Below, in pieces: positions 17,944-51,272 of a stretch of DNA of 64,000 nt. The DNA comes from a bacterium (GTDB taxonomy: Bacteria; Patescibacteriota; Minisyncoccia; Moranbacterales; UBA1568). How positions within the stretch are numbered: position 1 is the stretch's first letter; each line of letters starts with the position of its first letter. The position numbers and the translations under genes are program-made. The DNA is taken from assembly GCA_021821305.1 (NCBI GenBank), contig JAKACP010000001.1, positions 748,421 through 812,420 of the forward strand, written 5' to 3'. The notes under the pieces were generated by a model, which was given only the letters and a program-made list of their open reading frames with translations, had not been told where the DNA came from and did not search any database.

Positions 17944-18100
17944 ACTTTTATAGAGACACAAAACACGGAACACAAACATCCAAACCAACTGAAGTTAATC
18001 CTTTTAATTTTTTGTTTTTGGTTTTGTTTGGCTTTTTGCGCTTTGGGTTTTGTGTTTTCTTGAAAAGACTCTTCCGCACCGTCCCTGACACCACTGCCAC
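17944..18100. repeat. intergenic imperfect-palindromic repeat, copy A (AAAACACAAA ... TTTGTTTGGCTTTTTGCGCTTTGGGTTTTGTGTTTT)
   Basis: Shares a ~45-nt core and inverted AAAACAC/GTGTTTT arms with the copies at 40811 and 51141. Sits between the DedA stop and the uvrB start. Confidence 0.7.
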
Positions 18101-18744
18101 AGCCATATCCCCCGCTTGCGATGATACCAGAGCAGGAACAGGAGGGCGACGAACGAGACGGCGATCGTGATATCGGCATAGTACTTGAGCCCGATCACGG
18201 TATGGAAGAATTTCCGCAGGGCGACGATGCCAGTATACCCGATGAGGAGATAGACGAAGTCCTTGAGGAAGTTGCCGAGAAAGGTCGCGATGAGGAAGGT
18301 GCGCTTCGACATCTTGATGACGCCGGCGGCGATCGATATCGGCGCGGTCGGGAGGAACGGGACGAGGCGGAGCGAGAAGAGGATCAATCCGTCCTTCCAG
18401 TGACCGGTGAATTTCGCGCCGATGCTCTCGATTCCCGCGTGCGTCACGCCGAAGAACCGCCCGATCTTCCTCACCGCGAAGTCTTCCATCTTGTCCCCGA
18501 GCACGTAGTAGAAGAACGACCCGATGATCTTTCCCGCATTGCCGATGACGGACAACCAGACGAGGAAAAGGAGCGTCTTGGCATCCGCCGCCGCGAGCGA
18601 CCCGGCAAGCCCCATGATGAGGGTCGATGGGATCGGACTGATCACTTCCTCGAGAAACGACCCGATGAACACGAACGCTTCGAGCGGAACCGTCTGGGAA
18701 AACGCTTGGAGCCACGATTCGACGATCGCAAGGATATTCATCAT
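18004..18744 (-). CDS. DedA/VTT-domain family membrane protein; C-terminal ~35 aa tail encoded by repeat copy A
   Basis: Typical DedA core (GSFLEEVISPIP...LRLVPFLP...). After ...LLFLLWYHRKRG the frame continues through the repeat, giving a K/T/Q-rich tail to the stop at 18004. Confidence 0.8.
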   Translation of the reverse strand: MMNILAIVESWLQAFSQTVPLEAFVFIGSFLEEVISPIPSTLIMGLAGSLAAADAKTLLFLVWLSVIGNAGKIIGSFFYYVLGDKMEDFAVRKIGRFFGVTHAGIESIGAKFTGHWKDGLILFSLRLVPFLPTAPISIAAGVIKMSKRTFLIATFLGNFLKDFVYLLIGYTGIVALRKFFHTVIGLKYYADITIAVSFVALLFLLWYHRKRGIWLWQWCQGRCGRVFSRKHKTQSAKSQTKPKTKN

Positions 18745-19000
18745 ACCGGACCAGTATACCATGTGCAAGCCGTGCTGTCGGCCCCGCGGTCACGGCGGAA
18801 CTGAGGTGAGGACGGGAAAAATGAAGAGCCGCCCGGAATGTTTCCGTGCGGCTTTATTTGGTTGCAGCGAGAGCCCGTCACCGGCATTATCACGACCTTG
18901 TGAGTCGGATACGGGCCTATTAAGCCCGGTCTAGAACAGTGGATTTCTCCGACACTCGCTGCAACTGGAATATTATACCACTTATTTAAATATAAGTCAA

Positions 19001-21049
19001 CTATAGTCCGAGCTCGCCTTTCTTCCCCCAGGTATCGATATCATAGGCATAGGCCGCGTCCTCGCTCACGATATAGAAGACATCGTCGATGAACAGCGCC
19101 CGTTTGATACGGTCGCCCTTGGCAGCTTTCGCGAGCGAGAGCTCATTCCCCTCATGCGAGAAGGCGTATCCTCCCTGATATCCCGGAATGAAGAAGATGT
19201 CGTGTGCCGGATCGGCGAGGAAGGCGTGGTGGTTCTGCATGGCTTCCGACCAGTACTCATCGAGGACGTATTTCGAGACCTCGCGCGGCTCATCCGGAGA
19301 CGACACGTCGAACAAGGAGAGTTTCACCTTGTCATCCTCCTTGCCGACACCGAGGATCAGATCATCGCCGAGCGGGTGCAGATAGGACGAGTATCCCGGA
19401 ATCTTCAGTTCCCCGGCCAGGCGCGGTTTATCCGGATCGGAGAGATCGAGCACGTAGAACGGATCGGTCTCCTTGAACGTCACGAGGTATCCGGTCTCAC
19501 CGATGAACCGCGCGGCGTAGATCCGCTCGCCCTGACCCAGGTCGAGCAGGCGGCCTTCCCGATCGAGATCCGCGTCGAGCACGTAGACATCGTTGGCGCT
19601 CGCATCGCTGTTCACCCATCCGAACCCGAACGATTGCCGGCCGCCGACCGTCGTCGCGACGCGCAGGCGACCGTCATATTCGTCGAGCGAGAACTGGTTG
19701 AGGAGATACCCGGGAACCGATCCCTCCGCCGCGAGCGACAGATCCGACAACGAGAGCTTCGCGATGCCGGTCGACCCGAGTTCCCGGAGATGGGTCTTGG
19801 CGTAGTCGGTCATCCGGTTCTGCACCTCGCTTTGGAATCGGAGACGGTCGTCGGCATCGCGCGAAAAGAGCGCCTGTTCCATGATCCGCGAGAACTCCGT
19901 CATCTTCGCGTCCTGGCCGATATCGTAGCCGGCAAGCTTCTCGAGCCGCTCGAATATCCCTTCGGGAAGCAGATCGCGGTTGCCGCGGAAAAATCCGAGG
20001 ATGTACCCCATCGGGTCACCCGCCTCCGGGAAGGTCGCGTAGACGGCGTTCTCGCTCATATAGACCGTCGACTGGCCGGAGGACCCGACGAACGACGTCT
20101 TCGCCTTGGCGGCGCCGGTCTTCGGGTCGACCGCGACCGCGGCGAACACCGCGTCCACGAAGGACGGGACGGCCGGCCGATAGATATCGACGCAGGCGAT
20201 CGAGAGCTTCTCGGCGCCGACCGAAAACGGGGTTATCGGACACGGGGAGGATTCGTTCACCCAGGTTTTTTCGACGAGGTAGAGCGTATCTCCGTATTTC
20301 CTCGCCGCGAGAAGCTCGGTCCCGTCGGTCTGCCGGAGCACCCATTTTTCCTTCGGGTTCGCCTTGTCCGAGATATCGAAGGCGGCGATATCGCGCCGCG
20401 ACAGATCGAACACGACGAGCGTGTCACCGAAGAGGAGCATCTCTCCGCTCCGTCCCAGCGAAGCCACCTTCGACATCGCTTCCGCCGGAACCGCGGAGAT
20501 GATATCCGTCCGTCCCGTCGGAACGTATGCCGGGACGGTACCGCTCTCCCCCGGAGCGAGCAGACTCGCTTCCGTATCGGCGGCGCGCTTTTCCATGACC
20601 GGGCTGTCGAGTATGCGGTAGTCCGGTTCACGCGAGAAATATATGGTCGATCCGTCCGTCTTCACGATATCCGGCTCGTCGATCCCCGCGACCTGGACGT
20701 TCGTCTCGGAAAATCGTTCCGGTGTCGCGGTGGATTTCACGGAGGTCTCCGGTGTCGCGGCATCCAGGGTCATGACGTCGCCCCCCATCCGTCCGCCCAT
20801 ACCGAACCCGGACGATTGGGCCGCTCGGGCCGCGACGAGGTAGCTTCTGAACTCCTCCTCGCTTCCGAACTTCCCGATATCCCCGACACGACCCGCGTCG
20901 GGCGAACCCGCCTTCGGCAGGACATCCGACAGACGGCCTTTCATGTTCCCGATCTCGCGTATCGATGGTATGAGCGCGACGATCGCCGCGAGTATCCCGA
21001 ACAGCGCGAGGAGCAACCCGAGCGCGAGGAGAAGTCGTTTCGTTTGCAT
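19001..21049 (-). CDS. membrane-anchored beta-propeller domain protein (Beta_propel / PF09826-like)
   Basis: N-terminal TM (LLLALGLLLALFGILAAIVALIP) and recurrent YVLD/LSLFDVS/FYVLDLSDP blade-like motifs. 682 aa. Confidence 0.65.
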   Translation of the reverse strand: MQTKRLLLALGLLLALFGILAAIVALIPSIREIGNMKGRLSDVLPKAGSPDAGRVGDIGKFGSEEEFRSYLVAARAAQSSGFGMGGRMGGDVMTLDAATPETSVKSTATPERFSETNVQVAGIDEPDIVKTDGSTIYFSREPDYRILDSPVMEKRAADTEASLLAPGESGTVPAYVPTGRTDIISAVPAEAMSKVASLGRSGEMLLFGDTLVVFDLSRRDIAAFDISDKANPKEKWVLRQTDGTELLAARKYGDTLYLVEKTWVNESSPCPITPFSVGAEKLSIACVDIYRPAVPSFVDAVFAAVAVDPKTGAAKAKTSFVGSSGQSTVYMSENAVYATFPEAGDPMGYILGFFRGNRDLLPEGIFERLEKLAGYDIGQDAKMTEFSRIMEQALFSRDADDRLRFQSEVQNRMTDYAKTHLRELGSTGIAKLSLSDLSLAAEGSVPGYLLNQFSLDEYDGRLRVATTVGGRQSFGFGWVNSDASANDVYVLDADLDREGRLLDLGQGERIYAARFIGETGYLVTFKETDPFYVLDLSDPDKPRLAGELKIPGYSSYLHPLGDDLILGVGKEDDKVKLSLFDVSSPDEPREVSKYVLDEYWSEAMQNHHAFLADPAHDIFFIPGYQGGYAFSHEGNELSLAKAAKGDRIKRALFIDDVFYIVSEDAAYAYDIDTWGKKGELGL

Positions 21050-21118
21050 GGCATTTGTATGAACGTATTCGCCTCCAGTATATCAGAAACTGTCCGACAT
21101 GAGATCTCGGGCAGTTTC

Positions 21119-22654
21119 TTATAACCCGAGCTTCGCGAGCCGCGAGCGTATGCCGCCCGGCTCGCGGCCGAGGATCGCGGCGATCTCGGCGACGGAAAGT
21201 TCCTTGCGATGCATCGCACGCAGTTCCGCCTCCTCCTCTTCGCTCCATCGCCGATAGGCGCCGGGACGTTTTTCCTTCCTTTGTTTTCCCGGAACGGTTT
21301 TCTTCTTCGGTTTCGCCTTTTCGCTCGACCGCACCTCGCCACCGCTCCGCCTTATGAACGTTTCGGACTGGTCCCGAAGCTCCGTTTCGGAGAGAGCGGC
21401 GTATCGGGCCCGCGCCTCGTCGGACGCGGCTCGGAAGAGTGCATCCTGCTCCGATACCCCGGGATGGACGCGGAACGCCTGCGCGGAAACGCCGAGAAGA
21501 TGTACTCCCTCGAGTGTCCGCACCCGGGAGAGCGCGACATACCCCTGTCCGAACTCGAATACCCGGGAGAGGTCCATCACCGCGGCGTCGAGGCTCATGC
21601 CCTGGCTCTTGTGTATCGTCATGGCCCAGGCCAATCGGAGCGGAATCTGTATGATCTTGGCGAGCGGTTCCCCGTCCTCCTCGAGCAGCCACTCCATCGG
21701 TTCGACCGTGATGCGCTTGCCTTCCCGTGTCTCGATGATCGGGTAGCGGCGTTCATCGGCGAATCCGACCACCGTACCGAGCGTGCCGTTTACGAACCCG
21801 GCGCTCGGATTGTTCTTGGTGCAGACGACGGACGCGCCCTCCTTGAGCTCGAGACGTTCCGGAGACAGGCATCCCTTCTTGAGCGAGGCGACGAGCCCCT
21901 CGGGGCCGCGTTCCGCCATGACGAATACCCATGTCTTCCCGGAAAGGCGCGCGAGTTCGCGCGCGTTAAGCGTGTCCACGTTGGTGTTGTGCGAATACAG
22001 CCGCACGACCTCGGGAGGAACCGGCAACCGTACCGAGAGCCGCGCCTCGATGCGCTCGAAATGCGTCTCGTCGAATTCGTCCCGGCGGATCGCTCCGAGC
22101 ACCTCGAGAAACGCCCGGTCCTCCTGCCGGTACTGTTCCTCGAGATAACAGACGGCGGGCGAAAGCGATCGCCACGCGGCCGACTCGAACGCGAAGGTGA
22201 CCCGCTCCCCTCCCCGCGATACCGGCGGAAGCTGAAAGAAATCGCCAACGAAGACGACCTGCATGCCGCCCCACGGCTCCTCGGACTTGCGTGCCCTGCG
22301 GCAGACCCTCTCGACCATGTCGAGCGTGTCGCCGTCTATCATCGACACCTCGTCGATGATGAGCGTGCGGCAGTTCTTGATGCGGCGCGCGATGTATCTC
22401 CCGCGGGCGATGTCGGTTATATCCCCGTCGGTAAGATGCCGGCGGATGCCGATACCGCTCCACGAGTGGAGCGTCATGCCGTGGATATGCGTCGCGGCGA
22501 TGCCCGTCGATGCCGTGATGGCGGGTTCGATGCCGCGGTCGCGCAGGTAGCGGACGTAGCGGTTTACGGTATGCGTCTTTCCCGATCCGGGCTCTCCGGT
22601 CAGAAACACGCTCGCTCCGGTCTTGAGTATGGTCAGAGCCTCTTCTTGGGTCAT
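21119..22654 (-). CDS. PIF1/RecD-like SF1 helicase with C-terminal sigma70-region-4-like HTH
   Basis: LTGEPGSGKTH Walker A, LIIDEVSMID Walker B, QGMSLD and YVALSRVR Pif1 motifs. C-terminal WSEEEEAELRAMHRKELSVAEIAAILGREPGGIRSRL HTH. Confidence 0.8.
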   Translation of the reverse strand: MTQEEALTILKTGASVFLTGEPGSGKTHTVNRYVRYLRDRGIEPAITASTGIAATHIHGMTLHSWSGIGIRRHLTDGDITDIARGRYIARRIKNCRTLIIDEVSMIDGDTLDMVERVCRRARKSEEPWGGMQVVFVGDFFQLPPVSRGGERVTFAFESAAWRSLSPAVCYLEEQYRQEDRAFLEVLGAIRRDEFDETHFERIEARLSVRLPVPPEVVRLYSHNTNVDTLNARELARLSGKTWVFVMAERGPEGLVASLKKGCLSPERLELKEGASVVCTKNNPSAGFVNGTLGTVVGFADERRYPIIETREGKRITVEPMEWLLEEDGEPLAKIIQIPLRLAWAMTIHKSQGMSLDAAVMDLSRVFEFGQGYVALSRVRTLEGVHLLGVSAQAFRVHPGVSEQDALFRAASDEARARYAALSETELRDQSETFIRRSGGEVRSSEKAKPKKKTVPGKQRKEKRPGAYRRWSEEEEAELRAMHRKELSVAEIAAILGREPGGIRSRLAKLGL

Positions 22655-22687
22655 AGGTATCAGGGCGATGAGATATCGGACGGTTAC

Positions 22688-23047
22688 TTAGCTCATGAAA
22701 TCGGGATCGCCGTCCAAGCGGGCATGCCAGGCGGCCACGTTGGTATAGACATAGAGGACGAGCACGACCAGAAAGAGTCCGGACAGATGTTCCGCATCGG
22801 GAGCGGCCGCGCCGATGAGGAGAACGGTCATGGGAAAAGAGATGAGCGGAAGCGCTATGTCGCTCGCCACGTTCCACGATGCCTCACGGAGACGGAAGCG
22901 CATCTCCAGAAGTTCCCAAAAAACCGCGAACGCGAAGGTGAGGAAAAACATGGGCAGTACCGGCAACGCGAACACGGCCGCGAACAGCGCGGCCACCGCC
23001 CCGGACAGGAAGTGCGGTATGGACCAGAAGTCGAGCAGTGTCTTCAT
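22688..23047 (-). CDS. small integral membrane protein (3-4 TM), unknown function
   Basis: Hydrophobic throughout. Start at MKTLLDFWSIPHFL (23047). Confidence 0.45.
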   Translation of the reverse strand: MKTLLDFWSIPHFLSGAVAALFAAVFALPVLPMFFLTFAFAVFWELLEMRFRLREASWNVASDIALPLISFPMTVLLIGAAAPDAEHLSGLFLVVLVLYVYTNVAAWHARLDGDPDFMS

Positions 23048-23141
23048 ATGGGTCCACTGTACCATATTCGACCACCCGCGAACAAAGAAAACGAAAAATC
23101 CGCCGTGAAGGCGGATTTTCGATCGTCAGTTAGGCGAAGCT

Positions 23142-24416: not shown

Positions 24417-24496
24417 GATTCTCTATGATTATCTACTAAAAAAGCGCCTGTGAGGCACTTGTTCAATAGATGAAAAAAGATACCATACAGCGATTC

Positions 24497-24525
24497 ACTA
24501 TATCACTTCCTCGTTGCGATGTCAA
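24497..24525 (-). promoter_or_regulatory. sigma70 promoter TTGACA-17-TATAGT driving the DEAD-box helicase gene
   Basis: Reverse strand ttgaca (24525-24520), 17-nt spacer, tatagt (24502-24497). About 80 nt upstream of the ATG at 24416. Confidence 0.6.
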
Positions 24526-24605
24526 GTGCGCACGACCCGACGCCCGGAGCGCGAACCCCGGAGAAAACAGAAATCCCGATCGGACGGACCGAACGGGATC
24601 CTTGT

Positions 24606-24630
24606 TCTTGGCGGGGACGAAGGGACTCGG
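24606..24630. repeat. 25-bp direct repeat copy of the tRNA-Asp 3' end (att-like)
   Basis: tcttggcggggacgaagggactcgg is identical to 24802-24826, i.e. the T-loop, acceptor 3' strand and CCA plus 3 flanking nt of tRNA-Asp, 175 bp downstream of the tRNA. Confidence 0.75.
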
Positions 24631-24804
24631 TCACGGATAATCCGCTCGCCGTCGCGACCGGATTTCCGCGACCCCGGCTCGCGGTTTCGCGTGCTCGCGA
24701 AACATCGCTCCGCCTTCCTCGTCCCTACGCAAGCGAAGCAGTTCGCTTGCTTCGTCTTCCGAAAGAAAACGAAATCCTGACCATATGGTCGGGATTTGTG
24801 ATCT

Positions 24805-24881
24805 TGGCGGGGACGAAGGGACTCGGACCCTCGACCTCCACAGTGACAGTGTGGCGCTCTAACCAGCTGAGCTACGCCCCC
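24805..24881 (-). tRNA. tRNA-Asp (GTC), CCA encoded
   Basis: Manual cloverleaf: GGGGGCG acceptor, anticodon loop CTGTCAC, TTCGAGT-type T-loop. 77 nt. Confidence 0.85.
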
Positions 24882-24987
24882 AAGATGACTTCCTCGTATA
24901 TCCGATACCACAATCCAATCACCAAACAATCACTCCGTTTGGTTGTTGGAGCCTGGTCCCCGGTCTTTTTTCAAGAGTACCAGGGGA

Positions 24988-25061
24988 GAGATTCGAACTC
25001 TCGACCCCGGGCTTATGAGTCCCGTGCTCTAACCAACTGAGCTACCCTGGCGATAGATAGT
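24988..25061 (-). tRNA. tRNA with CAT anticodon (elongator Met or lysidine-type Ile2), no encoded CCA
   Basis: GCCAGGG acceptor, anticodon loop CTCATAA, TTCGAAT T-loop. Confidence 0.75.
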
Positions 25062-25095
25062 TCAAACCCGATTCCCACATTTTGCACTAACTATG

Positions 25096-25169
25096 TTGCG
25101 GGGGTGGGATTCGAACCCACGACCTCCTGGTTATGAGCCAGACGAGCTGCCAGACTGCTCTACCCCGCT
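25096..25169 (-). tRNA. initiator tRNA-fMet (CAT)
   Basis: Near-identical to the E. coli initiator over the D-arm, anticodon arm (GGCTCATAACC) and T-arm. Unpaired 1:72 (A:A). Confidence 0.8.
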
Positions 25170-25184
25170 GTATTGACCGCCTTG

Positions 25185-25258
25185 TGGGTGATCCAAGATT
25201 CGAACTTGGGACCTCGACATTATCAGTGTCGCGCTCTAACCAACTGAGCTAATCACCC
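25185..25258 (-). tRNA. tRNA-Ile (GAT)
   Basis: GGGTGAT acceptor, anticodon loop CTGATAA, TTCGAAT T-loop. Confidence 0.85.
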
Positions 25259-28381: not shown

Positions 28382-28454
28382 TGGACCGTACAGGATTCGA
28401 ACCTGCGACCCCCGCATTGCAAATGCGGTGCTCTACCAACTGAGCTAACGGCCC
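28382..28454 (-). tRNA. tRNA-Ala (TGC) with G3:U70
   Basis: GGGCCGT/ACGGTCC acceptor with the G3:U70 identity pair, anticodon loop TTTGCAA. No encoded CCA. Confidence 0.85.
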
Positions 28455-39794: not shown

Positions 39795-40810
39795 GAGCGT
39801 TGCCCGATGATCTTTTCCATCCTCGACACGAGGAAGATGAACGCCGCGGCAAGCGCGGCGAGGAACAGGAATTTCCCGGCCGCCTGAAACGACAGCGCGG
39901 CGAGGGCGGCGAGGGCGGAGACACCGGTATAGAGAACCGCTACCCGGCGATCGGACCAGCCCAAGAGCCGCAACCGGTCATGGAGATGCCGTCCGTCCCC
40001 GCCGCGGAAGGGCGACGCTCCGGCGCGGACGCGCGCGCGTATGACATAGGCCGCATCGAGCACCGGTACCGCGAGGACGAGGAGGGTCGTGGCTATCTTG
40101 GCCCCGGCGAAGAGCGACAGCGCCGCGACCGAAAACCCGATGAAATACGAACCGGCGGTTCCGGCCATGAGCGACGCCTTGGGAAAATTGAAAAGGAGGA
40201 AGGAGAACGACAGCCCCGCGAGGATCGCGGCGAGGATCGCCACGGCCGGCTGATTCACTTCCGGCCGGAGACTCACGAGGAAGATCGCCGAAAACGCCAC
40301 CGTCGCCACGCCTCCGAGGAGGCCGTCGACGCCGTCCGCCCAATTGACCGCGTTCATGACGAGCACCGTGAACGCGAGACCGACGAGGAAGCTCGGCAAG
40401 AACCACGAATCCGGATGGAGAAACAGCGGTTCCCCGAAGGGATTGGTCAGGACCCATGCACGCATGCCGGAAAGGAAGATGATCGAGGCGAGCGCGAGCT
40501 GGAACAGGAGCTGTGCGGGCCAACCGATCGGAACGATATCGTCCCACGCACCGACGAGGAGGACGAACGCCGCACCGACGAGGAGTCCGATGAGTTGCGG
40601 CGTCGGCTCGAGGTCGGGGTTCGCGGCGACTCCCGCGAGGAACGCGAGAACGAGCGCGACACCGCCGAAACGCGACACCGCCTTGTGCGTCCGCCCGGGT
40701 TCATCGCGGACCATCGGGGCGAATCGACGGGACAGGAACAGGACGAATGAAAGGAGCGCGGCGGAGAGAATGAATGAGAGAAGGAATGGAAAAAGGAATT
40801 TTTCAGGCAT
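39791..40810 (-). CDS. glycosyltransferase family 4 polyprenyl-phosphate sugar-1-phosphate transferase (MraY/WecA-like)
   Basis: AWDD, NAVNWADGVDGL motifs and ~10 TM helices. Start at MPEKFLFPFLL (40810), which lies at the edge of repeat copy B. Confidence 0.8.
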   Translation of the reverse strand: MPEKFLFPFLLSFILSAALLSFVLFLSRRFAPMVRDEPGRTHKAVSRFGGVALVLAFLAGVAANPDLEPTPQLIGLLVGAAFVLLVGAWDDIVPIGWPAQLLFQLALASIIFLSGMRAWVLTNPFGEPLFLHPDSWFLPSFLVGLAFTVLVMNAVNWADGVDGLLGGVATVAFSAIFLVSLRPEVNQPAVAILAAILAGLSFSFLLFNFPKASLMAGTAGSYFIGFSVAALSLFAGAKIATTLLVLAVPVLDAAYVIRARVRAGASPFRGGDGRHLHDRLRLLGWSDRRVAVLYTGVSALAALAALSFQAAGKFLFLAALAAAFIFLVSRMEKIIGQRS

Positions 40811-40943
40811 AAAACACAAAGCATAAAAACACAAAAATCAAAACAAAGCCCAAACCCCTAAAAACACAAAATACAAATCGGATCTCGTTTGATTCCCGTG
40901 TTTCGTGTTTTGTTTGGATTTTTGTACACTGGGTTTTGTGCTT
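40811..40943. repeat. intergenic imperfect-palindromic repeat, copy B
   Basis: AAAACACAAA arms plus core TTTTGTTTGGATTTTTGTACACTGGGTTTTGTGCTTTT homologous to copies A and C. Between the GT2 stop and the GT4 start. Confidence 0.7.
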
Positions 40944-42662
40944 TTACTTCTTCCGTATCTTCTCCGTCACCCAGAATTCGCCGAAATATTTCTTAAGTAG
41001 GATGCGCGTCTGGGAATCGATGGCCGGGATCGCGCCGAGGAGCGCGATGACCGGGGCGAGGAACCACTGCGCGAACATGAGTACGTTGCGCATCGGTCCG
41101 TATTTCTTGGGACGCGGCGGCAGCATGAGGAACGAGAGGAACATGAATATGACGAGGCCGCCCATGGCGAGCGTCATGAGGATGCGGGTGACGAAGGGCA
41201 GATTGTGCGCGAGCACGCTCTCATTGAATGCGGGACCGCCGAGAAAAAGCGGAAGCCATCCGAGGAACGCGAGGATGAGCGGGGCCGTCGCCCAGGAAAA
41301 GTGCCCCTCGATCATCTCGATGGTGACGCGGATCTTCTTCCACAGCGGCATCAGCCGGTCCGGCCAGATCGCGCGCATGGTCACGGGAAAGTTCTCGATG
41401 CCGTACGCCCAGCGACGCTTCTGTTTGTACTCGTTCTTGAGGGTCTTCCAGTACGTGTCGGCAAGGACGGCATCGAGCGAGATCGGAAGCAGTATCGGGG
41501 TCACCTTGTAATCGCCGTGGAAATATGACAGCGCCTTCCAGTAGATGACCGAGTCCTCGCTGATCATGTTGACCGGCCAGAAATTGACGCGCACGAGCGT
41601 ATCGAACGGTTCGGAGTGCGACGAGAAGGTCACCATGTCCTTGCGCGTGCTCTGGTACATGTGCCAGAACGACGACCCCGTGACCATGACGCGCACGAAC
41701 GCGTTCGTATCCCAGAGGTTGTTGTGATACATGGGCAACGGTTGGTAGGCGCGCTGCAGCCGATTCGGATCGGTGATGTAGGCGTAGGTGAGCGCCGAGA
41801 AATACTCCGGGTGGACGACCGAGTCGCAGTCGAAGTTCGAGAAGATGACCCGCTTATAGTCGATATTCCGCTCATCGAGGTAGGTCATGAGCTTGCGCGC
41901 CGCGTATCCGGCATTCGACGCCTTGCAGCGCATCTCGCCTGAAGCCACCTCGTGCGTCGTCACGATGAAATCGCGGAACACGCCGCGGAATTTCTCCTCG
42001 AGGTATTTCACCTTGGGGAGCCGCGTCTCCTCCGGCTCGCGTTCCTCGGTCGCGAGCAGGATGATGACCTGCGACTTCGGGAAGCTGGATTCGGCGATGG
42101 ACCGTATCGACGGCTCGATGATTTCCGGTCCCTCGTTCGCGGTCGGAAGCAGCACCACGTGGACGATATCGCGATAGTCGAGAATCTGCTCCCGTATCGG
42201 TTCGAGTTCGCGGAGCTCCGCGGCATACCGCACGAGTTCCCGGCGCTCCTTGCGGATGATGCGGCGTTCGCGAAAGGAGAGTTTCTCCTCGCGGAGCATC
42301 GCGCGGAGATGTTCGGATCGTTCGAGGAGCTCCGCACGATACTTTCCGGGGTCGCGGACCTGGACCACGCGCTCCCACCAGTTTATCCGTACGCCCCTGC
42401 GGAGCCCGCGATAAGCCATGATGGAGAAGAAGGCCACGTACACGGTGAGGTAGATCCAGTAGATGTCGAACACGATGACGAATACGGCCGCGCCGACCGG
42501 AGCGAGCCACGATCCGACGAACATACCGAGTATGGTCGCCCAGGTGAGCGTACCGGGAATGAGCTCGAGCGCGCGCTGGGCGAAACGGCCACGAGGCTCG
42601 ACGGTTTTCGGATCCGGAAACGTGAACGAGGTTTTCTGCGCGGCCATACCGGTGCGGTCCAT
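40944..42662 (-). CDS. processive family-2 glycosyltransferase (cellulose/chitin-synthase-like, membrane-embedded; QxxRW motif)
   Basis: D, DxD-like (FDCDS) and QKRRWAYG motifs between N- and C-terminal TM bundles. 572 aa. Confidence 0.75.
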   Translation of the reverse strand: MDRTGMAAQKTSFTFPDPKTVEPRGRFAQRALELIPGTLTWATILGMFVGSWLAPVGAAVFVIVFDIYWIYLTVYVAFFSIMAYRGLRRGVRINWWERVVQVRDPGKYRAELLERSEHLRAMLREEKLSFRERRIIRKERRELVRYAAELRELEPIREQILDYRDIVHVVLLPTANEGPEIIEPSIRSIAESSFPKSQVIILLATEEREPEETRLPKVKYLEEKFRGVFRDFIVTTHEVASGEMRCKASNAGYAARKLMTYLDERNIDYKRVIFSNFDCDSVVHPEYFSALTYAYITDPNRLQRAYQPLPMYHNNLWDTNAFVRVMVTGSSFWHMYQSTRKDMVTFSSHSEPFDTLVRVNFWPVNMISEDSVIYWKALSYFHGDYKVTPILLPISLDAVLADTYWKTLKNEYKQKRRWAYGIENFPVTMRAIWPDRLMPLWKKIRVTIEMIEGHFSWATAPLILAFLGWLPLFLGGPAFNESVLAHNLPFVTRILMTLAMGGLVIFMFLSFLMLPPRPKKYGPMRNVLMFAQWFLAPVIALLGAIPAIDSQTRILLKKYFGEFWVTEKIRKK

Positions 42663-42665
42663 AGG

Positions 42666-44199: not shown

Positions 44200-44299
44200 A
44201 GGAGACGAAGGATAAAGGACGCAAGATACAAGATAAATGATGGATCAAGAAAAATCAGTCTTTTCTTTTGTCACGCATCATGCATCCCGCATCACGACA

Positions 44300-44905: not shown

Positions 44906-45011
44906 ATGCGGAAGACCTATAAGAAAATCCACCTCCTCCCCCACTCTACTCAACACGCGGAGAAAAGTCAAAGCGGAGCCAAAAAACGCCGTGATTCCCC
45001 TGTGGAAAATG

Positions 45012-45020
45012 TGGTATAAT
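45012..45020 (+). promoter_or_regulatory. extended -10 promoter element TGGTATAAT
   Basis: tggtataat at 45012-45020, 12 nt upstream of the ATG at 45033. Confidence 0.5.
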
Positions 45021-45032
45021 GGAAAAAACGGT

Positions 45033-47408
45033 ATGCCCCAACGGAAAAACGGGAAAGTCGAGCCGCAGAAGATGATAGAGGTGCGCGCCGCGGACATTTT
45101 TGTCGCGAGAAACCGGTCCGCCGAACCCTATATCAAATCGTTCATAGCGGCGCCGGAAAACCTCGCCCAGGAAGGTCTCGGTACGATCGTGGGCGTCTTT
45201 TCCGTGTCCGATCGGTCGGAATCGTCCGCCTATGTGGTGAACGCCCTCGCCTCGGTAGCGAAGAAGGAATATTTCGCGAATCCGCGCCGCGGGTCGCTCG
45301 AGAGCTTCGAGGCGACGCTCCACAAGATGAACGTGACGCTCGCCGAACTCGTGAAGAACGGCCAGACGGAATGGATCGGAAATCTCCACGGGGCGATCGC
45401 GGTCGTCGAGAAGCACACCCTCCACTTCTCGGTCACCGGAGAAGGCGCCATACTCCTCTTCCGCGGCGGCACGCTCTCCGATATCGGCGAAGGACTCGCT
45501 TCCGAAGAGGCCAAGCTTCACCCCCTCAAGACGTTCGTCGAGATCTCGAGCGGCCGGCTCGCCGCGGAAGACTACATACTCCTCTCCTCGCCGGAACTGT
45601 TCGCGCTCTTCGAACCAGGCGAGCTCGAACGGAGCGCCCGGCGTATCGGGATAGGAAGGAAGTTCTCGCAGTTTCTCGAGACCGCCATGGTAAACGAGCT
45701 CAAGACCGGGGCCGTCGTGATACTCGATGTCTTCGAGAAACTCGTCGAATCGGTCCCGGAGCGGAAATCGGCGCGACGACACCAAGCGAAACCCCGCGTC
45801 GTGAACGCATGGAGCGCGCAGGCATTCGAGGAAAAAAGGAACGAGAATTCCTCCTATTTCCGCGAAGAAATCCCGGAAGAGGCGATGTCGGTCGAACCCC
45901 CCGCCCCGACGGAAGATACCCGCTTCGGCGAAATCTACGTCCGAGGGGAAGCATCCGGCAAACACGACGAGCATCCGACCATCACCAAATGCCGCTGGAT
46001 CCTCGAGGATCTGCTGTCCCGATACGAGGCCGCGAAAGTCAGGGCGAAGGAACGCCTGAGACGACAGGCCGAATCGATATCCGCCTCCGTTTCCGAAAAC
46101 GTCTCTTCTTCGCTTTCGAAAATGAAGGCGGCGGCGCCATCCCTTCGGAAACCCGCGGACTCAGCTCCCGCCCAGGAAGCGGAACGGGAAACGCCTCCCG
46201 AAGAGGAGCCGTCACCCGAGCGGGCCGCGCCCGCGGCAAGCCGACTCCGTCTCCCCGAGCTTCCCCGCATCACCCTACCGAAGATTTCCGTCCCCGCCCT
46301 TCCGAAAGTCGATACCTCGCGATACGCGGAAATCTCGAGACGGCATGCCGGCCGCATCGGCGGAAACATCGCCCGGTTCGCCAGGATCGCCTCTGCCGAT
46401 TTCATCCTCCCGGGACTGCGCGGGCTGGGCTCCTCGATCCGCGCCGCGGCCGCTTTCCTGAAGCGGCGGTTCCTCGCGCTCTCCCCGAAACGACAGCTGC
46501 TCGTCGCGAGCGGCGCGACCTTCGCGCTCACGATCGGCATCATCGTCATGTGGAATTGGGGTGCCGAAGAGAACGCGGAATCTGTCCCGGTCGTGGTCAC
46601 CGAAGCTCCGGCGCCGGCATTCCCCCCGGAAAACGAAAAAAGCGCCGTACTCGCTTCGCCCGAGGCGGTCACCGGAACACCCGAAAACATGATCACGCCT
46701 GTCTTCCTCAATGGCCGCCTTTTCCTCGTCGCCGAGCGGACACTCGTCGATGCCCAGGACGGGACGTCCTATCCGTCGCCCTCCGAGAGCAGGGTCCGCT
46801 ACGCGGCTGGCATGGACGATCTCAATCTCATTTTCCTCTCCCTGGAAAACGGCGAGCTCTACTCCTTCGCGCCCGCGAACCGCTCCTTCGTGAAGAACGC
46901 GATTCCGCTTCCCGCGGGATTCAGGACGGCCGGCATCGGATCCTTCCTCACCTACCTCTACTTCCTCGAGGACGAGACGGGCAACGTGTACCGATACCCG
47001 CGCGCCGAGGGCGGTTTCGGCGAAGGCCTGCTCTGGACGCGCGAGGCCATGCCCGGTGACACGACGGCGATAGCCGTCAGCGAGGCGATCTATGGCACCA
47101 CCGGTTCCTCCGTCTCCGCATTCCTCCGGGGACGGCCATCCGCCGGGTTTTCTCCCGAGGCGCCGTCCACGCCTCTTTCCGTCACCGCGCTCTGCGCCAA
47201 CCCCAATGTGCCCGGCATCGTCGCTGTCGTCGACGCTCCCGCGAAACGGATCATCGTCTTCTCGGACTCCGGCTCCATCGTGCGGCAATTCTTCAGCGAA
47301 TCGTTCACGGATGCCGCCGCCTGCTCGCTGCGGGACGACGGCTCCGCGGTCGCCGTATCGACCGGACGGGGGGCGTGGATCCTCCCCCTCGCGGAAAACG
47401 GGCAATAG
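45033..47408 (+). CDS. large hypothetical membrane-spanning protein (cytoplasmic N-domain ~260 aa, P/E/A/R-rich linker, one TM, extracytoplasmic C-domain ~330 aa)
   Basis: In-frame ATG 12 nt after the extended -10. TM LLVASGATFALTIGIIVMWNW. The ORF-track N-terminus (44433-45032) is antisense to the wHTH gene and was rejected. Confidence 0.55.
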   Translation: MPQRKNGKVEPQKMIEVRAADIFVARNRSAEPYIKSFIAAPENLAQEGLGTIVGVFSVSDRSESSAYVVNALASVAKKEYFANPRRGSLESFEATLHKMNVTLAELVKNGQTEWIGNLHGAIAVVEKHTLHFSVTGEGAILLFRGGTLSDIGEGLASEEAKLHPLKTFVEISSGRLAAEDYILLSSPELFALFEPGELERSARRIGIGRKFSQFLETAMVNELKTGAVVILDVFEKLVESVPERKSARRHQAKPRVVNAWSAQAFEEKRNENSSYFREEIPEEAMSVEPPAPTEDTRFGEIYVRGEASGKHDEHPTITKCRWILEDLLSRYEAAKVRAKERLRRQAESISASVSENVSSSLSKMKAAAPSLRKPADSAPAQEAERETPPEEEPSPERAAPAASRLRLPELPRITLPKISVPALPKVDTSRYAEISRRHAGRIGGNIARFARIASADFILPGLRGLGSSIRAAAAFLKRRFLALSPKRQLLVASGATFALTIGIIVMWNWGAEENAESVPVVVTEAPAPAFPPENEKSAVLASPEAVTGTPENMITPVFLNGRLFLVAERTLVDAQDGTSYPSPSESRVRYAAGMDDLNLIFLSLENGELYSFAPANRSFVKNAIPLPAGFRTAGIGSFLTYLYFLEDETGNVYRYPRAEGGFGEGLLWTREAMPGDTTAIAVSEAIYGTTGSSVSAFLRGRPSAGFSPEAPSTPLSVTALCANPNVPGIVAVVDAPAKRIIVFSDSGSIVRQFFSESFTDAAACSLRDDGSAVAVSTGRGAWILPLAENGQ

Positions 47409-47426
47409 AAACTTATTCGAAAGGAA

Positions 47427-47454
47427 AAGCCCGGCGCATGCCGGGTTTTCTTCG
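47427..47454. terminator. bidirectional Rho-independent terminator between convergent 45033 gene and pilB
   Basis: gcccggc-gcat-gccgggt stem flanked by A-run and T-run. Confidence 0.65.
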
Positions 47455-47488
47455 TACTTTCGGAATTATATGGACTCCTCTCCCCTTC

Positions 47489-49237
47489 CTACTCCTTCGT
47501 CACGCGGAGGATCTCCTCGATGGTCGTGATACCCTGGACGGCCTTGCAGAACCCGTCCTCGGACATCTTCGACATACCGTTCTTCTTCGCCTCCGCCTCG
47601 ATCACCTCCGACGTCGCGGACTGGGTCACGAGCTTGCGGATATTCGTCTCCATCGCGAGCACCTCGTAGACGCCGACCCGGCCGCGGTACCCTTCGCCGC
47701 CGCACTGATCGCAGCCGACGGGCTTGTAGAACGTGAGGTCCGTGAGCGACTTCGCGTTTCCCATGACGTTCCTGATACTCTCCTGCGACCGGAGGTACGT
47801 GAAAATCTCACCGGTGTCGACGCTCTTCTCGAGCGCCTTCGCTTCGTCCGGATCGAGGGTATAGGGTTTCTTGCATTCCTGGCAGAGCTTGCGCGCGAGC
47901 CGCTGGGCGATGATGATGTTGACCGTCGAAGCGATCAGGAACGGCTCGGCGCCCATGTCGAGCATGCGCGGAAGCGTCGCGGCGGCGCTGTTGGTATGGA
48001 GTGTCGAGAGCACGAGGTGTCCGGTCATCGCGGCGTGGAGCGCGATCTCGAGGGTCTCCTCGTCACGGATCTCGCCGACCATGAGGATGTCCGGGTCCTG
48101 CCGGAGCAACGAGCGGAGCGCGGCCGCGAAAGTCATCCCGACCTTCGGATTGATCTGCGTCTGATTCACGCGCGGCATCCGGTATTCCACCGGATCCTCG
48201 ACGGTCGAGATGTTCACCTCCGGGGTATTGAGGATATCCATGATGGTGTAGAGCGTCGTCGTCTTGCCGGAGCCCGTCGGACCGGTGACGAGGATGATGC
48301 CGTTGGGCTTCTTGATCTCGCGGTGCACGACCTCGAGCGATTCGCCGACGAGCCCCATCTTCTCGAGCGTGAGCCCCTTCGCGGATTCGTCGAGGAGACG
48401 CATGACGATCTTTTCCCCGTCGAACACGGGCAGCATGGAGACGCGGAAGGAGATCTTGTAGTCGTCCTTCTCGATCTTGAAGCGGCCGTCCTGCGGGGAA
48501 CGGTGCTCGTCGAGCTTGAGATTCGAGAGCACCTTGATGCGCGCCACGATGCCGGCCGCGGCGTCCTTGGGCAGGGTCATAGCGTCATGAAGCACGCCGT
48601 CGATCCGGTAGCGGACGCGGACCTCCTTCTCATCGGGCTCGATGTGGATATCGGAGGCGGATTGGAGGATCGCATGTTTGAGGAGGGTGTCCACGATACG
48701 GACGACGGGCAGATCCGTCGCCATCTTCTCGAGATTGCCGTGGTCATCACCTTCCTTGGGATTCTCCGCGGTGATCTCGAGCATGTCGCCGAATTCGGCC
48801 TTGAGACTCTTCTCGTAGGATCGGAGCGTCGCTTGGATGCTTTCCCTCGTCGTGAGGCACGGGACGATCTTCAGTCCGCTCTTCTTCTTGATGAAGTCGA
48901 TCGTCTGGAGATCCTCCGGGTTGAGCATGGCGACCTTGAGGTTCTGCCCCTGTTTCTCGAACGAGACGATATTGTATTTGCGGGCGATCGGCTCGGGCAC
49001 GATCTGGAGGATGTCGAGCGGGACGGCCTCCTTGGTAAGGTCGACGAACGGGATGCCGAGCACGTAGGCATAGACCTTCTGGAGGCCCGCCTCATCGATC
49101 AGTTTCGATGCGAGAAGGGTTTCGCCGAGCTTCTTCTGCTGTTTCACGGCCTCCGCCGCCGCTTCCTCGAGCTTGTCCTTGGGGACGAGATTCGAGTCGA
49201 GGAGAAACAGCTTCAACTGGTCATCGGTGATTCTCAT
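47489..49237 (-). CDS. pilB: type IV pilus assembly ATPase PilB / GspE-family secretion ATPase
   Basis: N-terminal GSPII_E_N-like domain, GPTGSGKTTT Walker A, Asp box, His box, tetracysteine CDQCGGEGYRGRVGVYE. Extended -10 (TGATATAAT) at 49284-49292. Confidence 0.9.
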   Translation of the reverse strand: MRITDDQLKLFLLDSNLVPKDKLEEAAAEAVKQQKKLGETLLASKLIDEAGLQKVYAYVLGIPFVDLTKEAVPLDILQIVPEPIARKYNIVSFEKQGQNLKVAMLNPEDLQTIDFIKKKSGLKIVPCLTTRESIQATLRSYEKSLKAEFGDMLEITAENPKEGDDHGNLEKMATDLPVVRIVDTLLKHAILQSASDIHIEPDEKEVRVRYRIDGVLHDAMTLPKDAAAGIVARIKVLSNLKLDEHRSPQDGRFKIEKDDYKISFRVSMLPVFDGEKIVMRLLDESAKGLTLEKMGLVGESLEVVHREIKKPNGIILVTGPTGSGKTTTLYTIMDILNTPEVNISTVEDPVEYRMPRVNQTQINPKVGMTFAAALRSLLRQDPDILMVGEIRDEETLEIALHAAMTGHLVLSTLHTNSAAATLPRMLDMGAEPFLIASTVNIIIAQRLARKLCQECKKPYTLDPDEAKALEKSVDTGEIFTYLRSQESIRNVMGNAKSLTDLTFYKPVGCDQCGGEGYRGRVGVYEVLAMETNIRKLVTQSATSEVIEAEAKKNGMSKMSEDGFCKAVQGITTIEEILRVTKE

Positions 49238-49408
49238 ATTTTCGGTGTGTGTTTTTCGCTTCCATCCGCGACGGTACGATTTCATTATATCACACGTAAC
49301 GGACAGAAAAAGACCGCCCCTGTCCGGGACGGCCCTTTTTCCGAGGAGCGCGTTTTCGCCATCAGCCTCTGTCACCCTATCGATCTGCTCACGATTCTCT
49401 GAACAGAA

Positions 49409-51058
49409 TCACATCATTCCGCCCATGTCCATGCCGCCGCCATGGGGGTGTTCCTTCTTCTCCTCGGGAAGGTCGACGATCGCCGCCTCGGTGGTGAGGA
49501 GCAATGCCGCGACCGATACCGCGTTCTCGAGCGCGGTCCGCGTCACCTTCAAGGGATCGATGATCCCCGCCTTCACCATGTCCTCCTCGTACGTGTCATT
49601 CGAGGCGTTGTAGCCGAAATTGACGCCTTTTGCCTCGACCACCTTGGCCAGGACGACCGCCGGATCCTGTTCGCCCGCGTTCGCGGCGATCTGCCGCAAC
49701 GGGTCGGAAAGGGCGCGCAGGAGCGTCTCATAGCCCGCCTTGTACTCGTGGCTCTCATATTCCTTCTTCGCGTGGGCCAACGACACGGCCGCCGCCGCCT
49801 TGGCGAGCGCGGTCCCACCGCCGGCGACGATGCCCTCCTCGATCGCCGCGCGGGTCGCGTTCACCGCGTCCTCCATCTTATGCTTCATGTAGGTGAGCTC
49901 GGTCTCGGTCGAAGCGCCCACACGGATCACCGCGACGCCGCCCGAGAGTTTCGCCATGCGCTTCTTGGACTTGTCACGGTCGTATTCGCTCTCCGTCCGG
50001 TCGGCCTGCGCCCGGATCTCCGCGACGCGCGCGTCGATATCCTTCTTCTTCCCCTTGCCACCGACGATGGTCGTGTCGTCCTTGGTCGCGATCACCTTGG
50101 AGGCGCGGCCGAGCTGGTCGATCGTCGCCGCCTCGAGTTTCATCCCGGTCTCCTCCGAGATCACGGTAGCGCCGGTCAGGATCGCGATATCGCGAAGCAT
50201 CGCCTTCTTGTTCTCGCCGAACTCCGGCGCCTTGACCGCGAGCACGGAGAGCACGCCGCGAAGCCGGTTCACCACGAGCGTCGCGAGCGCCTCGCCGTCC
50301 ACGTCCTCGGCGATGATGACGATATCCTTCTTGCCCGACTGCGCGAGCGCGTTCAGTATCGGCACGATGTCATTGATGGCCGATATCTTCCGGTCGGTGA
50401 TGAGGATGTACGGATCGTTCACCTCCGCCGTCTGCGCTTCCGCGTCGGTCATCATATACGGCGAGATATAGCCCTTGTCGAAATTCATGCCCTTCACGAT
50501 CTCCTTGGAGAGACCGAGGGTATTGGACTGCTCGGTCGTCACGACGCCGTCCGATCCCACTTCATCGATCACCGACGCGATCATCTCGCCCATCTCGCGC
50601 GACTCCGCGGATATCGTCGCGACCTGCGTGATCTCCGCCTGGGACGAGATCTTCTTCGAATTCTTGGCGAGTACCGCCGTCACTTCCCGGAGCGCGCCTT
50701 CCATGCCCCGGCGGATGCCGATCGGATTGATGCCGGTCTCGACGAACTTGAGCCCCTCGCGGATGAGCGCGGATGCCACGACGGTCGCCGTCGTCGTCCC
50801 GTCGCCCGCGATGTCATTGGTCTTCTCGGCGACCTGTTTGATGAGCTCGGCGCCGAGGTTCTCATACTTGTCGGGCAGTTCGACTTCCTTGGCGATGGAT
50901 ACGCCGTCGTTGGTGATGGTCGGTCCGCCGAACGACTTGCCCAGGATCACGTTGCGCCCCTTGGGCCCGAGCGTCATCCGGACCGCGTTCGCGACCTTGT
51001 CGACTCCGATCTTGATACGCTTGCGCGCATCCTCGCTGTAGGCGATCTGTTTTGGCAT
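49409..51058 (-). CDS. groEL: chaperonin GroEL (60 kDa), C-terminal GGM tail
   Basis: Full-length GroEL, ending ...GGGMDMGGMM. Confidence 0.97.
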   Translation of the reverse strand: MPKQIAYSEDARKRIKIGVDKVANAVRMTLGPKGRNVILGKSFGGPTITNDGVSIAKEVELPDKYENLGAELIKQVAEKTNDIAGDGTTTATVVASALIREGLKFVETGINPIGIRRGMEGALREVTAVLAKNSKKISSQAEITQVATISAESREMGEMIASVIDEVGSDGVVTTEQSNTLGLSKEIVKGMNFDKGYISPYMMTDAEAQTAEVNDPYILITDRKISAINDIVPILNALAQSGKKDIVIIAEDVDGEALATLVVNRLRGVLSVLAVKAPEFGENKKAMLRDIAILTGATVISEETGMKLEAATIDQLGRASKVIATKDDTTIVGGKGKKKDIDARVAEIRAQADRTESEYDRDKSKKRMAKLSGGVAVIRVGASTETELTYMKHKMEDAVNATRAAIEEGIVAGGGTALAKAAAAVSLAHAKKEYESHEYKAGYETLLRALSDPLRQIAANAGEQDPAVVLAKVVEAKGVNFGYNASNDTYEEDMVKAGIIDPLKVTRTALENAVSVAALLLTTEAAIVDLPEEKKEHPHGGGMDMGGMM

Positions 51059-51081
51059 AATATCGTGTCGTTACGTGTTAG

Positions 51082-51108
51082 TTGGCACTCTCAGTTGATG
51101 ATTGCCAA
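51082..51108. promoter_or_regulatory. CIRCE-like inverted repeat (TTGGCACTC-N9-GATTGCCAA), HrcA operator candidate
   Basis: 9-N9-9 inverted repeat matching TTAGCACTC-N9-GAGTGCTAA at 15/18 positions. Located between the groEL -10 and the start codon. Confidence 0.65.
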
Positions 51109-51111
51109 TCC

Positions 51112-51140
51112 ATTCTAGAAACTTCCTTCTCCTCTGTCAA
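51112..51140 (-). promoter_or_regulatory. groEL promoter TTGACA-17-TAGAAT
   Basis: Reverse strand ttgaca (51140-51135), 17-nt spacer, tagaat (51117-51112). The -35 abuts/overlaps the end of repeat copy C. Confidence 0.6.
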
Positions 51141-51272
51141 GAAAACACAAACGGCCAGAACACAAACATCCAAAGAAAACACGGATTACAAACGGGATCC
51201 TGTTTGTGCTTTTGTTTTTTGTGTTTTTTTTGGCTTTTTGCGCACTGTGTTTTGTGTTTTCATTTTCAAGAT
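51141..51272. repeat. intergenic imperfect-palindromic repeat, copy C
   Basis: GAAAACACAAAC...GAACACAAACATCCAAA (shared with copy A), GGATCC-centred inner palindrome (shared with copy B), core TTGGCTTTTTGCGCACTGTGTTTTGTGTTTTC. Between the ychF stop and the groEL promoter. Confidence 0.7.

Follow-up and report, generated by a model that had tools for sequence, protein, structure and literature searches.

The 64,000-nucleotide stretch of DNA analyzed here, hereafter called the window, belongs to contig JAKACP010000001.1 (positions 748,421 to 812,420 of the forward strand; GenBank assembly GCA_021821305.1) of a bacterium assigned to Moranbacterales, Patescibacteriota, within the candidate phyla radiation (CPR); by GroEL and other proteins it groups with Candidatus Moranbacteria/Moraniibacteriota. 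It contains three related repeats of 115–135 bp each, located at the gene junctions DedA>uvrB (element A), GT2>GT4 (two glycosyltransferase genes; element B) and ychF>groEL (element C), which are members of a family of short non-coding insertion elements in CPR/Patescibacteria that seems not to have been described before. They were inserted between same-strand genes, into very short spacers or an outright stop/start overlap, and the filled sites are conserved far above the synonymous level, so that selection or homogenization acts on them. The interpretation considered most probable, at about 0.55, is that these are insertion elements of the kind represented by miniature inverted-repeat transposable elements (MITEs), enterobacterial repetitive intergenic consensus (ERIC) sequences and Correia elements, co-transcribed with their neighbors and conserved after insertion. 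Besides the 64 kb of the source genome, approximately 220 kb of related loci, designated by L-numbers, were read.

Structure of the Repeat Elements

The three copies, at 17944–18068, 40811–40943, and 51141–51262, all lie on the minus strand, which is the strand of the genes. A first-pass annotation had found them, with their shared core, at these places between genes for DedA/VTT, UvrB, a GT2-like protein, Glycos_transf_4, YchF, and GroEL, and these gene names are correct. It had extended copy A to 18100, however, while the real end is at about 18068 and the remainder is DedA coding sequence. The 34-position degenerate core CACAAAACNCANNGNNCAAAAANCCAAANAAAAC (minus strand) has exactly three exact matches in the window, at 18021–18054, 40907–40940, and 51223–51256, with 0 matches expected in shuffled sequence even if three mismatches are tolerated. 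The motif AAAACACAAA, with at most one mismatch, occurs 17 times against 0.69 expected, an excess of about 25-fold, and 15 of the 17 occurrences fall within the three copies. A profile search of the 64-kb window with the repeat unit yielded no fourth copy, in line with the earlier statement that nothing else there is similar. Two pairwise-shared submodules noted earlier were also recovered: the 17-mer TTTGGATGTTTGTGTTC (reverse complement of GAACACAAACATCCAAA) is exact in A and C, at 17968–17984 and 51158–51174, and inner palindromes centered on GGATC(C) are present in B and C. The components of the elements are listed below.

17944–18068, minus strand: element A, whole, at the DedA>uvrB junction; identical in a strain of about 99% nucleotide identity
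Within 17944–18068: outer inverted-repeat extension of element A, CTTTTCAAGAAAACAC / GTGTCTCTATAAAAG
18021–18059, minus strand: 5′ arm of element A, sense A/C-rich unit (nhmmer 20.7 bits), inside the 3′ end of the DedA open reading frame (ORF)
18004–18006, minus strand: DedA stop codon TAA, in the center of element A, where the gene caller ends DedA
17954–17989, unit on the plus strand, T/G-rich on the gene strand: 3′ arm of element A (nhmmer 22.1 bits)
40811–40943, minus strand: element B, whole, exactly filling the interval from the GT2 stop codon (TAA, 40944–40946) to the GT4 ATG (40808–40810)
40904–40944, minus strand: 5′ arm of element B, sense unit (nhmmer 30.5 bits), the best fit to the family consensus
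40813–40852, plus strand: 3′ arm of element B, degenerate unit (nhmmer 9.3 bits)
40872–40893, no strand assigned: inner palindrome of element B, GGATC-centered, read from sequence and fold
51141–51262, minus strand: element C, whole, at the ychF>groEL junction; 115/122 positions identical to L016
51220–51262, minus strand: 5′ arm of element C, sense unit (nhmmer 26.4 bits)
51142–51183, plus strand: 3′ arm of element C (nhmmer 16.1 bits)
51187–51208, no strand assigned: inner palindrome of element C, ACAAACGGGATCCTGTTTGT, in the 36-nt center that is 36/36 identical to L016

On the gene strand, each element begins with an A/C-rich arm at or just past the end of a gene, continues through a variable center and ends with a T/G-rich arm before the next gene. 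Eleven elements, three from the window and eight from elsewhere, were divided into halves and the 3′ halves were reverse-complemented; all 22 halves align to one unit of about 45 nt, and the element is thus an inverted repeat of a single unit. The consensus of this unit is (G/A)AAA(A/G)CACAAAAC(A/C)CAGTGC(A/G)CAAAAA(G/T)CCAAACAAAACAC, or, in a looser form, (G/A)AAA(A/G)CACAAAAC.CAGTGC.CAAAAA.CCAAACAAAAC. Its near-invariant blocks, CACAAAAC and CAAAAA.CCAAAC.AAA, are separated by a variable stretch. Outside CAGTG the unit is almost free of T and therefore cannot pair with itself, so that a hairpin requires two inverted units. The centers, 20–50 nt long, differ from copy to copy. The two arms show one constant difference: the upstream arm carries CAGTG and the downstream arm, reverse-complemented, CAG(T/A)A, with a G·U pair at this place in 9 of the 11 aligned elements. 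In this lineage most copies have a central GATC, and this holds for each of the three junction lineages (window 40880–40884 and 51196–51201; L016, L018, L020, and L023); the motif reads GGATCC in copy C and has been lost from copy A of the window.

Long imperfect hairpins are predicted for all three copies, whichever strand is folded, as had been proposed, with z-scores of −2.8 to −4.1 relative to dinucleotide shuffles. Pairing of the arms is specific to the register, with 78.4% of cells paired in register versus 32–53% when the register is slid. Together with the 0 matches in shuffled sequence, this specificity excludes a chance resemblance of low-complexity sequence. The substitutions between L005 and the window and between L016 and the window mostly fit pairing on the sense strand, and the changes in L010/L013 and L023 are T>C in the 3′ arm. 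The arms pair because both keep the consensus of one unit, with no sign of repair by compensatory change.

Filled and Empty Junctions

At each of the three junctions, some relatives have the element and others lack it. The ychF>groEL junction carries the element in the window, L005, and L016 (GroEL 96% identical) and is empty in L015 (91%) and L017 (87%). At DedA>uvrB the element is present in the window, L018 (DedA 80% identical), and L020 (61%) and absent from L019 (88%) and L021 (60%); further relatives are filled at this junction, as judged by the tails of their proteins, and the element is kept down to 61% DedA identity. The GT2>GT4 junction is filled in the window, where 133 bp lie exactly between TAA and ATG, and in L023 (GT4 86% identical), the element of which was located by synteny and not by pattern. 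It is empty in L024 (75%), where the stop and start codons overlap as TAATG. Insertion is therefore the direction of change, since a precise deletion that happened to remake this overlap would be far less probable. L024 apparently derives from the same genome as L016, since an identical GT4 protein is encoded on the 24-kb contig of L016; one genome may thus be filled at one junction and empty at another, and the three copies are of different ages.

TA is found on both sides of the element at 4–5 of 7 junctions, with no consistent direct repeat; a duplication of TA is possible. The downstream start reads TATG at 6/6 independent junctions, against a background frequency of T at −1 of 0.46 (p ~0.009). 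The earlier description of all copies as lying directly between an upstream stop and the next gene applies except for copy A, in which the DedA stop is inside the element. At the element-less DedA>uvrB junction of L021 (10690–10775), two direct repeats of TAGAAATTAT(A/G)ATTT(G/A)GAAAT precede TTTGTGTCTC, possibly what is left of the 3′ arm.

Conservation of Filled Sites

Element C is identical between the window and L016 at 115 of 122 positions, with all 36 positions of the center retained, while the third codon positions of the flanking genes are 74–78% identical (~0.76; p = 5e-6). At the tpiA>pgk junction the elements of L010 and L013 share 118 of 131 positions (5′ arm 43/46, center 31/36), although third codon positions between these two loci are saturated, with 39–45% identity (p = 5e-20 versus the element). 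At junction B, comparison of the window with L023 shows that the 5′ arm alone is kept (84%), the rest being near neutral (58%). In six of the seven junction lineages, L023 among them, the 5′ arm has the higher score, and at junction A the 3′ arm is the better one; the loci located by pattern are biased toward well-kept arms. Copy A is closer to its paralogue C (88%) than to its own orthologues (81–82%), and the L023 copy is closer to C of the window than to B of the window, which hints at exchange between copies.

Distribution in Other CPR Genomes

A 22-base pattern was scanned once against the genome collection and once against the metagenome collection, and the unit proved to be present also in two Moraniibacteriota genomes (L002 and L004), in Parcubacteria GW2011_GWC2_48_17 (L001 and L012), and in four more CPR-like metagenome contigs (L007, L010, L013, and L014). 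A strain with 98–99% nucleotide identity to the window is likewise on record (L005 and L022). The G+C content is about 60% in the window and 47–55% in the carriers outside it; carriers of the 34-nt core range overall from 47 to 61%. Wherever both arms exist the layout is constant, comprising a stop codon, the A/C arm, the center, the T/G arm, and ATG. The flanking same-strand gene pairs are unrelated to one another: map>ruvX, sufB>sufD, tpiA>pgk, and a csoR-like gene followed by a gene for a SHOCT protein. With the filled and empty states of all three junctions, these copies bear out the proposal of a dispersed family similar to MITEs or repetitive extragenic palindromic (REP) sequences rather than ordinary spacer DNA. 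L001 and L012 retain sense units, and their T/G arm is missing or lost.

No copies were found in about 80 kb of the relatives' loci outside the targeted junctions, read as several pieces of 12–22 kb, and the unit was not found in viral contigs, phage records, or plasmid records. A search against Rfam returned only tRNAs at the gathering threshold; permissive hits were generic miRNA hairpin models, well below their thresholds. No account of repeats of this kind in CPR turned up in the literature searched.

Promoters, Terminators, and Gene Starts

The first-pass annotation had suggested that the elements carry or donate promoters and terminators. The signals adjoining element C are as follows.

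51112–51140, minus strand: groEL promoter TTGACA-17-TAGAAT, agreeing with the consensus at 11 of 12 positions; adjoins element C from outside
51082–51108, no strand assigned: CIRCE-like inverted repeat TTGGCACTC-N9-GATTGCCAA in the groEL leader, outside the element, kept in L015, L016, and L017
51263–51286, no strand assigned: short hairpin over the ychF stop codon, TTTTCAAGAT-TCAT-ATCTTGAAAA; lies beside element C, outside it

Copy C does abut the groEL −35 box, as had been noted, with TTGACA at 51135–51140 and TAGAAT 17 nt downstream. However, this promoter lies outside the element, and L015 has an equivalent promoter and operator without any element. In copy A the letters of the proposed uvrB promoter, TTGTGT-17-TATAAA, are present and fail a scan for the sigma-70 consensus. 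Scans of the sense strand of A and B for sigma-70 promoters and terminators gave no match. The sense strand of none of the three copies gave a terminator match; the only match within an element was on the other strand, at the inner palindrome of C. Canonical terminators with a GC-rich hairpin and a U-tract follow other genes of the same genome. Family members also reside inside operon-like pairs (sufB>sufD, tpiA>pgk, and GT2/GT4, which overlap where the site is empty). Judging from these predicted signals, donation of promoters or terminators by the elements is not supported.

The ychF stop codon forms the loop of the short perfect hairpin at 51263–51286; in L015 (9850–9905) this hairpin is longer (14 bp) and is followed by GGC-TTTTTT, resembling a normal terminator. 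The third position of the CIRCE-like operator is G instead of A. The groEL gene follows ychF and has no adjacent groES. Gene starts of the window genome, counted in L005 and L022, are preceded by a GGAG-type Shine-Dalgarno sequence in 10 of 37 cases and most commonly have T at −1 (17/37); many follow the pattern (A/T)CCT-ATG, and TGA is the main stop codon (26/37).

Element A has distorted the annotation of both its neighbors. The DedA ORF has no stop codon before copy A and runs through the 5′ arm (tail ...SRKHKTQSAKSQTKPKTKN*) to the stop at 18004–18006; here the element took the place of the DedA stop, so that the ORF runs into it. The 5′ arm of copy A and of its orthologues is therefore formally translated, as a KHKT...KSQTK tail. 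Comparison of orthologues places the true start of uvrB at 17943 (ATG, 17941–17943), 10 nt past the end of the 3′ arm, while gene callers push it upstream into that arm. The absorbed parts of the element (18004–18099 and 17944–17988) appear as a false DedA tail, KHKTQSAKSQTKPKTKN, and a false 12-residue N-terminal extension of uvrB, MFVFRVLCLYKS. Similar tails occur in the database DedA proteins P0122, P0123, P0130, and P0131.

Origin and Possible Function

Like MITEs, the elements are small (115–135 bp) and have no ORF of their own, the sole coding overlap being the read-through of DedA into copy A. Terminal inverted repeats are present, both arms of the 11 elements being built on one unit, and the filled-versus-empty polymorphism is observed at junctions A, B, and C. 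If these insertion elements are transcribed together with their neighbors, the RNA would fold as a long imperfect hairpin. Since the stop codon lies 0–15 nt before the 5′ arm and the start codon 0–8 nt after the 3′ arm, the foot of this hairpin would place the upstream stop beside the downstream start. Genes directly after the elements have no Shine-Dalgarno sequence and no room for one. A ribosome finishing the first gene could melt the hairpin foot and free the AUG, and dependence on such coupling would explain the constraint on filled sites. The unit itself is probably the recognition sequence of a trans-acting protein, which would account for its retention across distant CPR lineages; the transposase that moves the element would be the likeliest candidate. 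A sequence-specific reader of the unit thus probably exists, with a transposase as the first guess and a host RNA- or DNA-binding protein as the main alternative, which is favored by the constant orientation and by the solo sense units.

Several observations weigh against this interpretation. The conservation of orthologous sites is much above that expected of passive MITEs. The CAGTG arm is upstream at 6/6 junctions with distinguishable arms, which random insertion does not predict, orientation to transcription being confounded with replication, since the genes and the leading strand, as judged by GC skew, coincide in the window. L014 contains sense units only, single or in tandem and without a T/G arm, two of them apparently upstream of a gene start and so apparently in a 5′ untranslated region (UTR); not every member of the family thus has the hairpin. 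Copies are few (three in 64 kb), and no transposase Pfam family or parent element is present in the gene tables of the window and the fetched loci. The empty TAATG site does not rebuild as a TA duplication, the flanking bases overlapping the stop and start codons. In the sense of covariation, a conserved pairing of the arms is not supported, and there is no compensatory signal: with the 3′ partners shuffled among elements, 78.8% of cells are paired, with equal double changes, and a separate permutation gave an arm identity of 243 versus 244 for shuffled pairs. The asymmetry of G·U pairs between the sense and antisense strands (62 versus 55) favors neither strand. The RNA-hairpin part of the model is accordingly unproven, and a selected RNA structure is not claimed; that the downstream gene would rely on read-through transcription and stop–start coupling is also an inference.

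Some of these points would suit elements selected by the host as cis-acting signals, in which the sense A/C-rich unit of about 40 nt would be functional, as a site for an RNA-binding protein or as a ribosome standby or re-initiation pad, the T/G arm being optional and mobility a means of spread. Such a role agrees with the invariably upstream position of the CAGTG arm and with the better preservation of the 5′ arm at six of seven junction lineages, the synteny-found L023 among them, and in L010/L013 (43/46) despite saturated synonymous sites. It also agrees with the retention of sense units without the T/G arm in L014, L001, and L012, including the two L014 units apparently in a 5′ UTR, with the persistence of the DedA>uvrB element to 61% DedA identity, and with the lack of Shine-Dalgarno sequences in the genes that follow. 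Against a signal of this kind stand its uneven presence in close relatives at each of the three junctions, the functionally unrelated flanking genes, and the count of three copies in 64 kb where most genes lacking a Shine-Dalgarno sequence have no unit. Moreover, the 3′ arm is the better conserved at junction A, the orientation is confounded with replication direction, and part of the advantage of the 5′ arm is ascertainment, the loci having been found by that arm. Host selection of this kind is a serious, though minority, possibility. It is rather doubtful that the unit is a conserved cis-acting CPR expression signal carried by the sense mRNA, with the ribosome or a dedicated RNA-binding protein reading it to permit re-initiation without a Shine-Dalgarno sequence. 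If it were, the hairpin element would be a portable intercistronic module that splits overlapping genes without uncoupling them and becomes indispensable once in place. It appears improbable that the units are sites on double-stranded DNA, in inverted, direct, or single arrangement and unrelated to RNA, to which a nucleoid-associated, regulatory, or recombination protein of the chromosome binds. It is true that the sequence of the unit is conserved and not its pairing, that CACAAAAC and CAAAAA.CCAAAC.AAA around a variable stretch look bipartite, and that units occur inverted, in tandem, and alone. The neighboring genes, though, share no theme, the insertion site is clean and polymorphic, a constant gene orientation is not needed for double-stranded DNA, and the non-repeated center is conserved as well (36/36 in copy C, 31/36 in L010/L013).

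Very improbable is the earlier view of a portable cassette, in which the element would terminate transcription of the upstream gene and initiate that of the downstream gene. The long hairpin with its U-rich 3′ arm, the TTGACA adjoining copy C, the TTGTGT-17-TATAAA just ahead of uvrB, and the GC-rich hairpin with a T-tract that L015 has in the place of copy C speak for it. Yet copy C does not include the groEL promoter, which also exists where the element is absent, A and B lack any sense-strand promoter or terminator match, the TATAAA of copy A is 3 nt from the ATG, too near for a normal transcription start, and ordinary terminators are used elsewhere in the genome. A cassette of this type would also be out of place within sufB>sufD and tpiA>pgk and between genes that overlap at the empty site. 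Hardly credible is a chance likeness of low-complexity T/G spacers, or a coding origin as Lys-rich tails or small peptides, to which the strongly biased composition and the formal translation of the 5′ arm of copy A (KHKT...KSQTK) could point. Chance likeness is already refuted by the 0 core matches in shuffles, and the 34-nt core recurs in genomes of 47–61% G+C with a specific pairing register. Copies B and C and most others stand after a stop codon, and an arm almost free of T leaves any frame open by default.

Some other candidates were tried and rejected. Small hydrophobic peptides on the T/G-rich strand have no start codon and no conserved frame, and a density of about one copy per 20 kb is far too low for DNA uptake sequences. 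Integron attC sites have GTTRRRY/RYYYAAC cores, and the 38-bp inverted repeats of Tn3-type elements have a terminal GGGG; inspection by eye found neither in the elements. TIGR arrays consist of long tandem 36-nt units with variable dual spacers beside a tas gene with a Nop domain (PMC12045711). The copies described here are single inverted pairs between housekeeping genes, their UG-to-CCA stretch is conserved and not variable, and no gene with a Nop domain is nearby.

Other Features of the Window

A second, different hairpin element is present between uvrA and the next gene of the 99%-identical strain (L022, 22455–22555), with arms AAATATCAAAGTCCAAATGACAAATTTCAAATC and complementary TTTGACATTTGACATTTGA; in the window, this place (75–175) is taken by a shorter hairpin that differs from it. 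In other CPR genomes, tails of DedA proteins, for example NIKIKMSKFKSNP, resemble translations of this second hairpin family. An intergenic 59-nt imperfect palindrome (75% complementary) at 56972–57079 is unrelated to the element family.

Two UvrA-like ABC ATPase paralogues (175–3372 and 9916–12579) are encoded 9.7 kb apart, with uvrB and uvrC nearby, and are the source of the largest direct-repeat families of the window (D1, D3, and D5). Five clustered tRNA genes and one more are located on the minus strand (24808–25258 and 28382–28454). Just upstream of ychF, a gene at 52328–52582 (minus strand) codes for an 84-residue stand-alone GIY-YIG protein (Pfam E = 7e-15). It lies in an island of low G+C content (0.39–0.46) at 52.2–52.8 kb, where the database call is a 122-residue ORF on the other strand. 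At 58800–59000, in or beside the ORF 58127–59410, the G+C content falls to 0.375 with a strong negative GC skew, and this segment may be foreign DNA.

Comparison with Known Repeat Families

The genomes of CPR/Patescibacteria are small and compact and usually thought to be poor in repeats, and to our knowledge almost nothing is known of gene punctuation or translation in these bacteria. The family described here is common to Moranbacteria and Parcubacteria and is able to insert precisely where a stop and a start codon overlap, and its filled sites are held at about 90% identity while adjoining synonymous sites saturate. As passive MITEs and nothing more, the elements would extend a well-known class only modestly; the unit may also matter biologically, as a recognition sequence that has been conserved. 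In practice, its recognition would improve annotation by exposing false tails and extensions, and could provide a marker of strains and lineages and a handle on the mobile DNA of CPR.

In behavior the elements appear most like ERIC and, in part, Correia and REP sequences with their bacterial interspersed mosaic element (BIME) arrangements, with no sequence shared with any of them. ERIC sequences, or intergenic repeat units (IRU), of Enterobacteriaceae and Vibrio are imperfect palindromes of about 127 bp that occur in both orientations. The elements described here resemble them in size, in the long imperfect palindrome, in a transcribed intergenic location that includes the inside of operons, and in modest copy number. 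Filled/empty polymorphism, a puzzling high conservation, and the lack of a known transposase are further common traits. They differ from ERIC in the host phylum, in sequence, in the strong bias of their arms (A/C versus T/G), in the apparently constant gene orientation, and in the occurrence of single or tandem half-units (L014).

Correia elements (NEMIS) of Neisseria are MITEs of 100–155 bp with promoter-creating ends, an IHF site, and RNase III cleavage, present in hundreds of copies per genome with a clear TA duplication. The CPR elements are likewise small hairpin-forming inverted-repeat insertions next to genes, inferred to be co-transcribed, and their ends may be TA-flanked, with TA on both sides at 4–5 of 7 junctions. 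Unlike Correia elements, they are of low copy number, and the promoter idea fails for copy C.

The REP, BIME, and REPIN sequences are moved by RAYT transposases, and the REP unit is a palindrome of 20–40 nt with a GTAG-type head. Similar features are the intergenic location, often just past stop codons in operons, the occurrence of units singly, in tandem, or as inverted pairs, and a family consensus kept within and between genomes. The unit described here, however, is not self-palindromic and thus falls outside the definition of REP; it lacks a GTAG-type head, its copy number is far lower, and the gene tables read contain no RAYT gene. The RUP and BOX repeats of Streptococcus pneumoniae, which reach a much higher copy number, are also short modular intergenic hairpin repeats, and the submodules common to A and C and to B and C recall their modularity. 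Their sequences are unrelated to those of the CPR elements, for which there is no evidence of a matching insertion sequence (IS) element.

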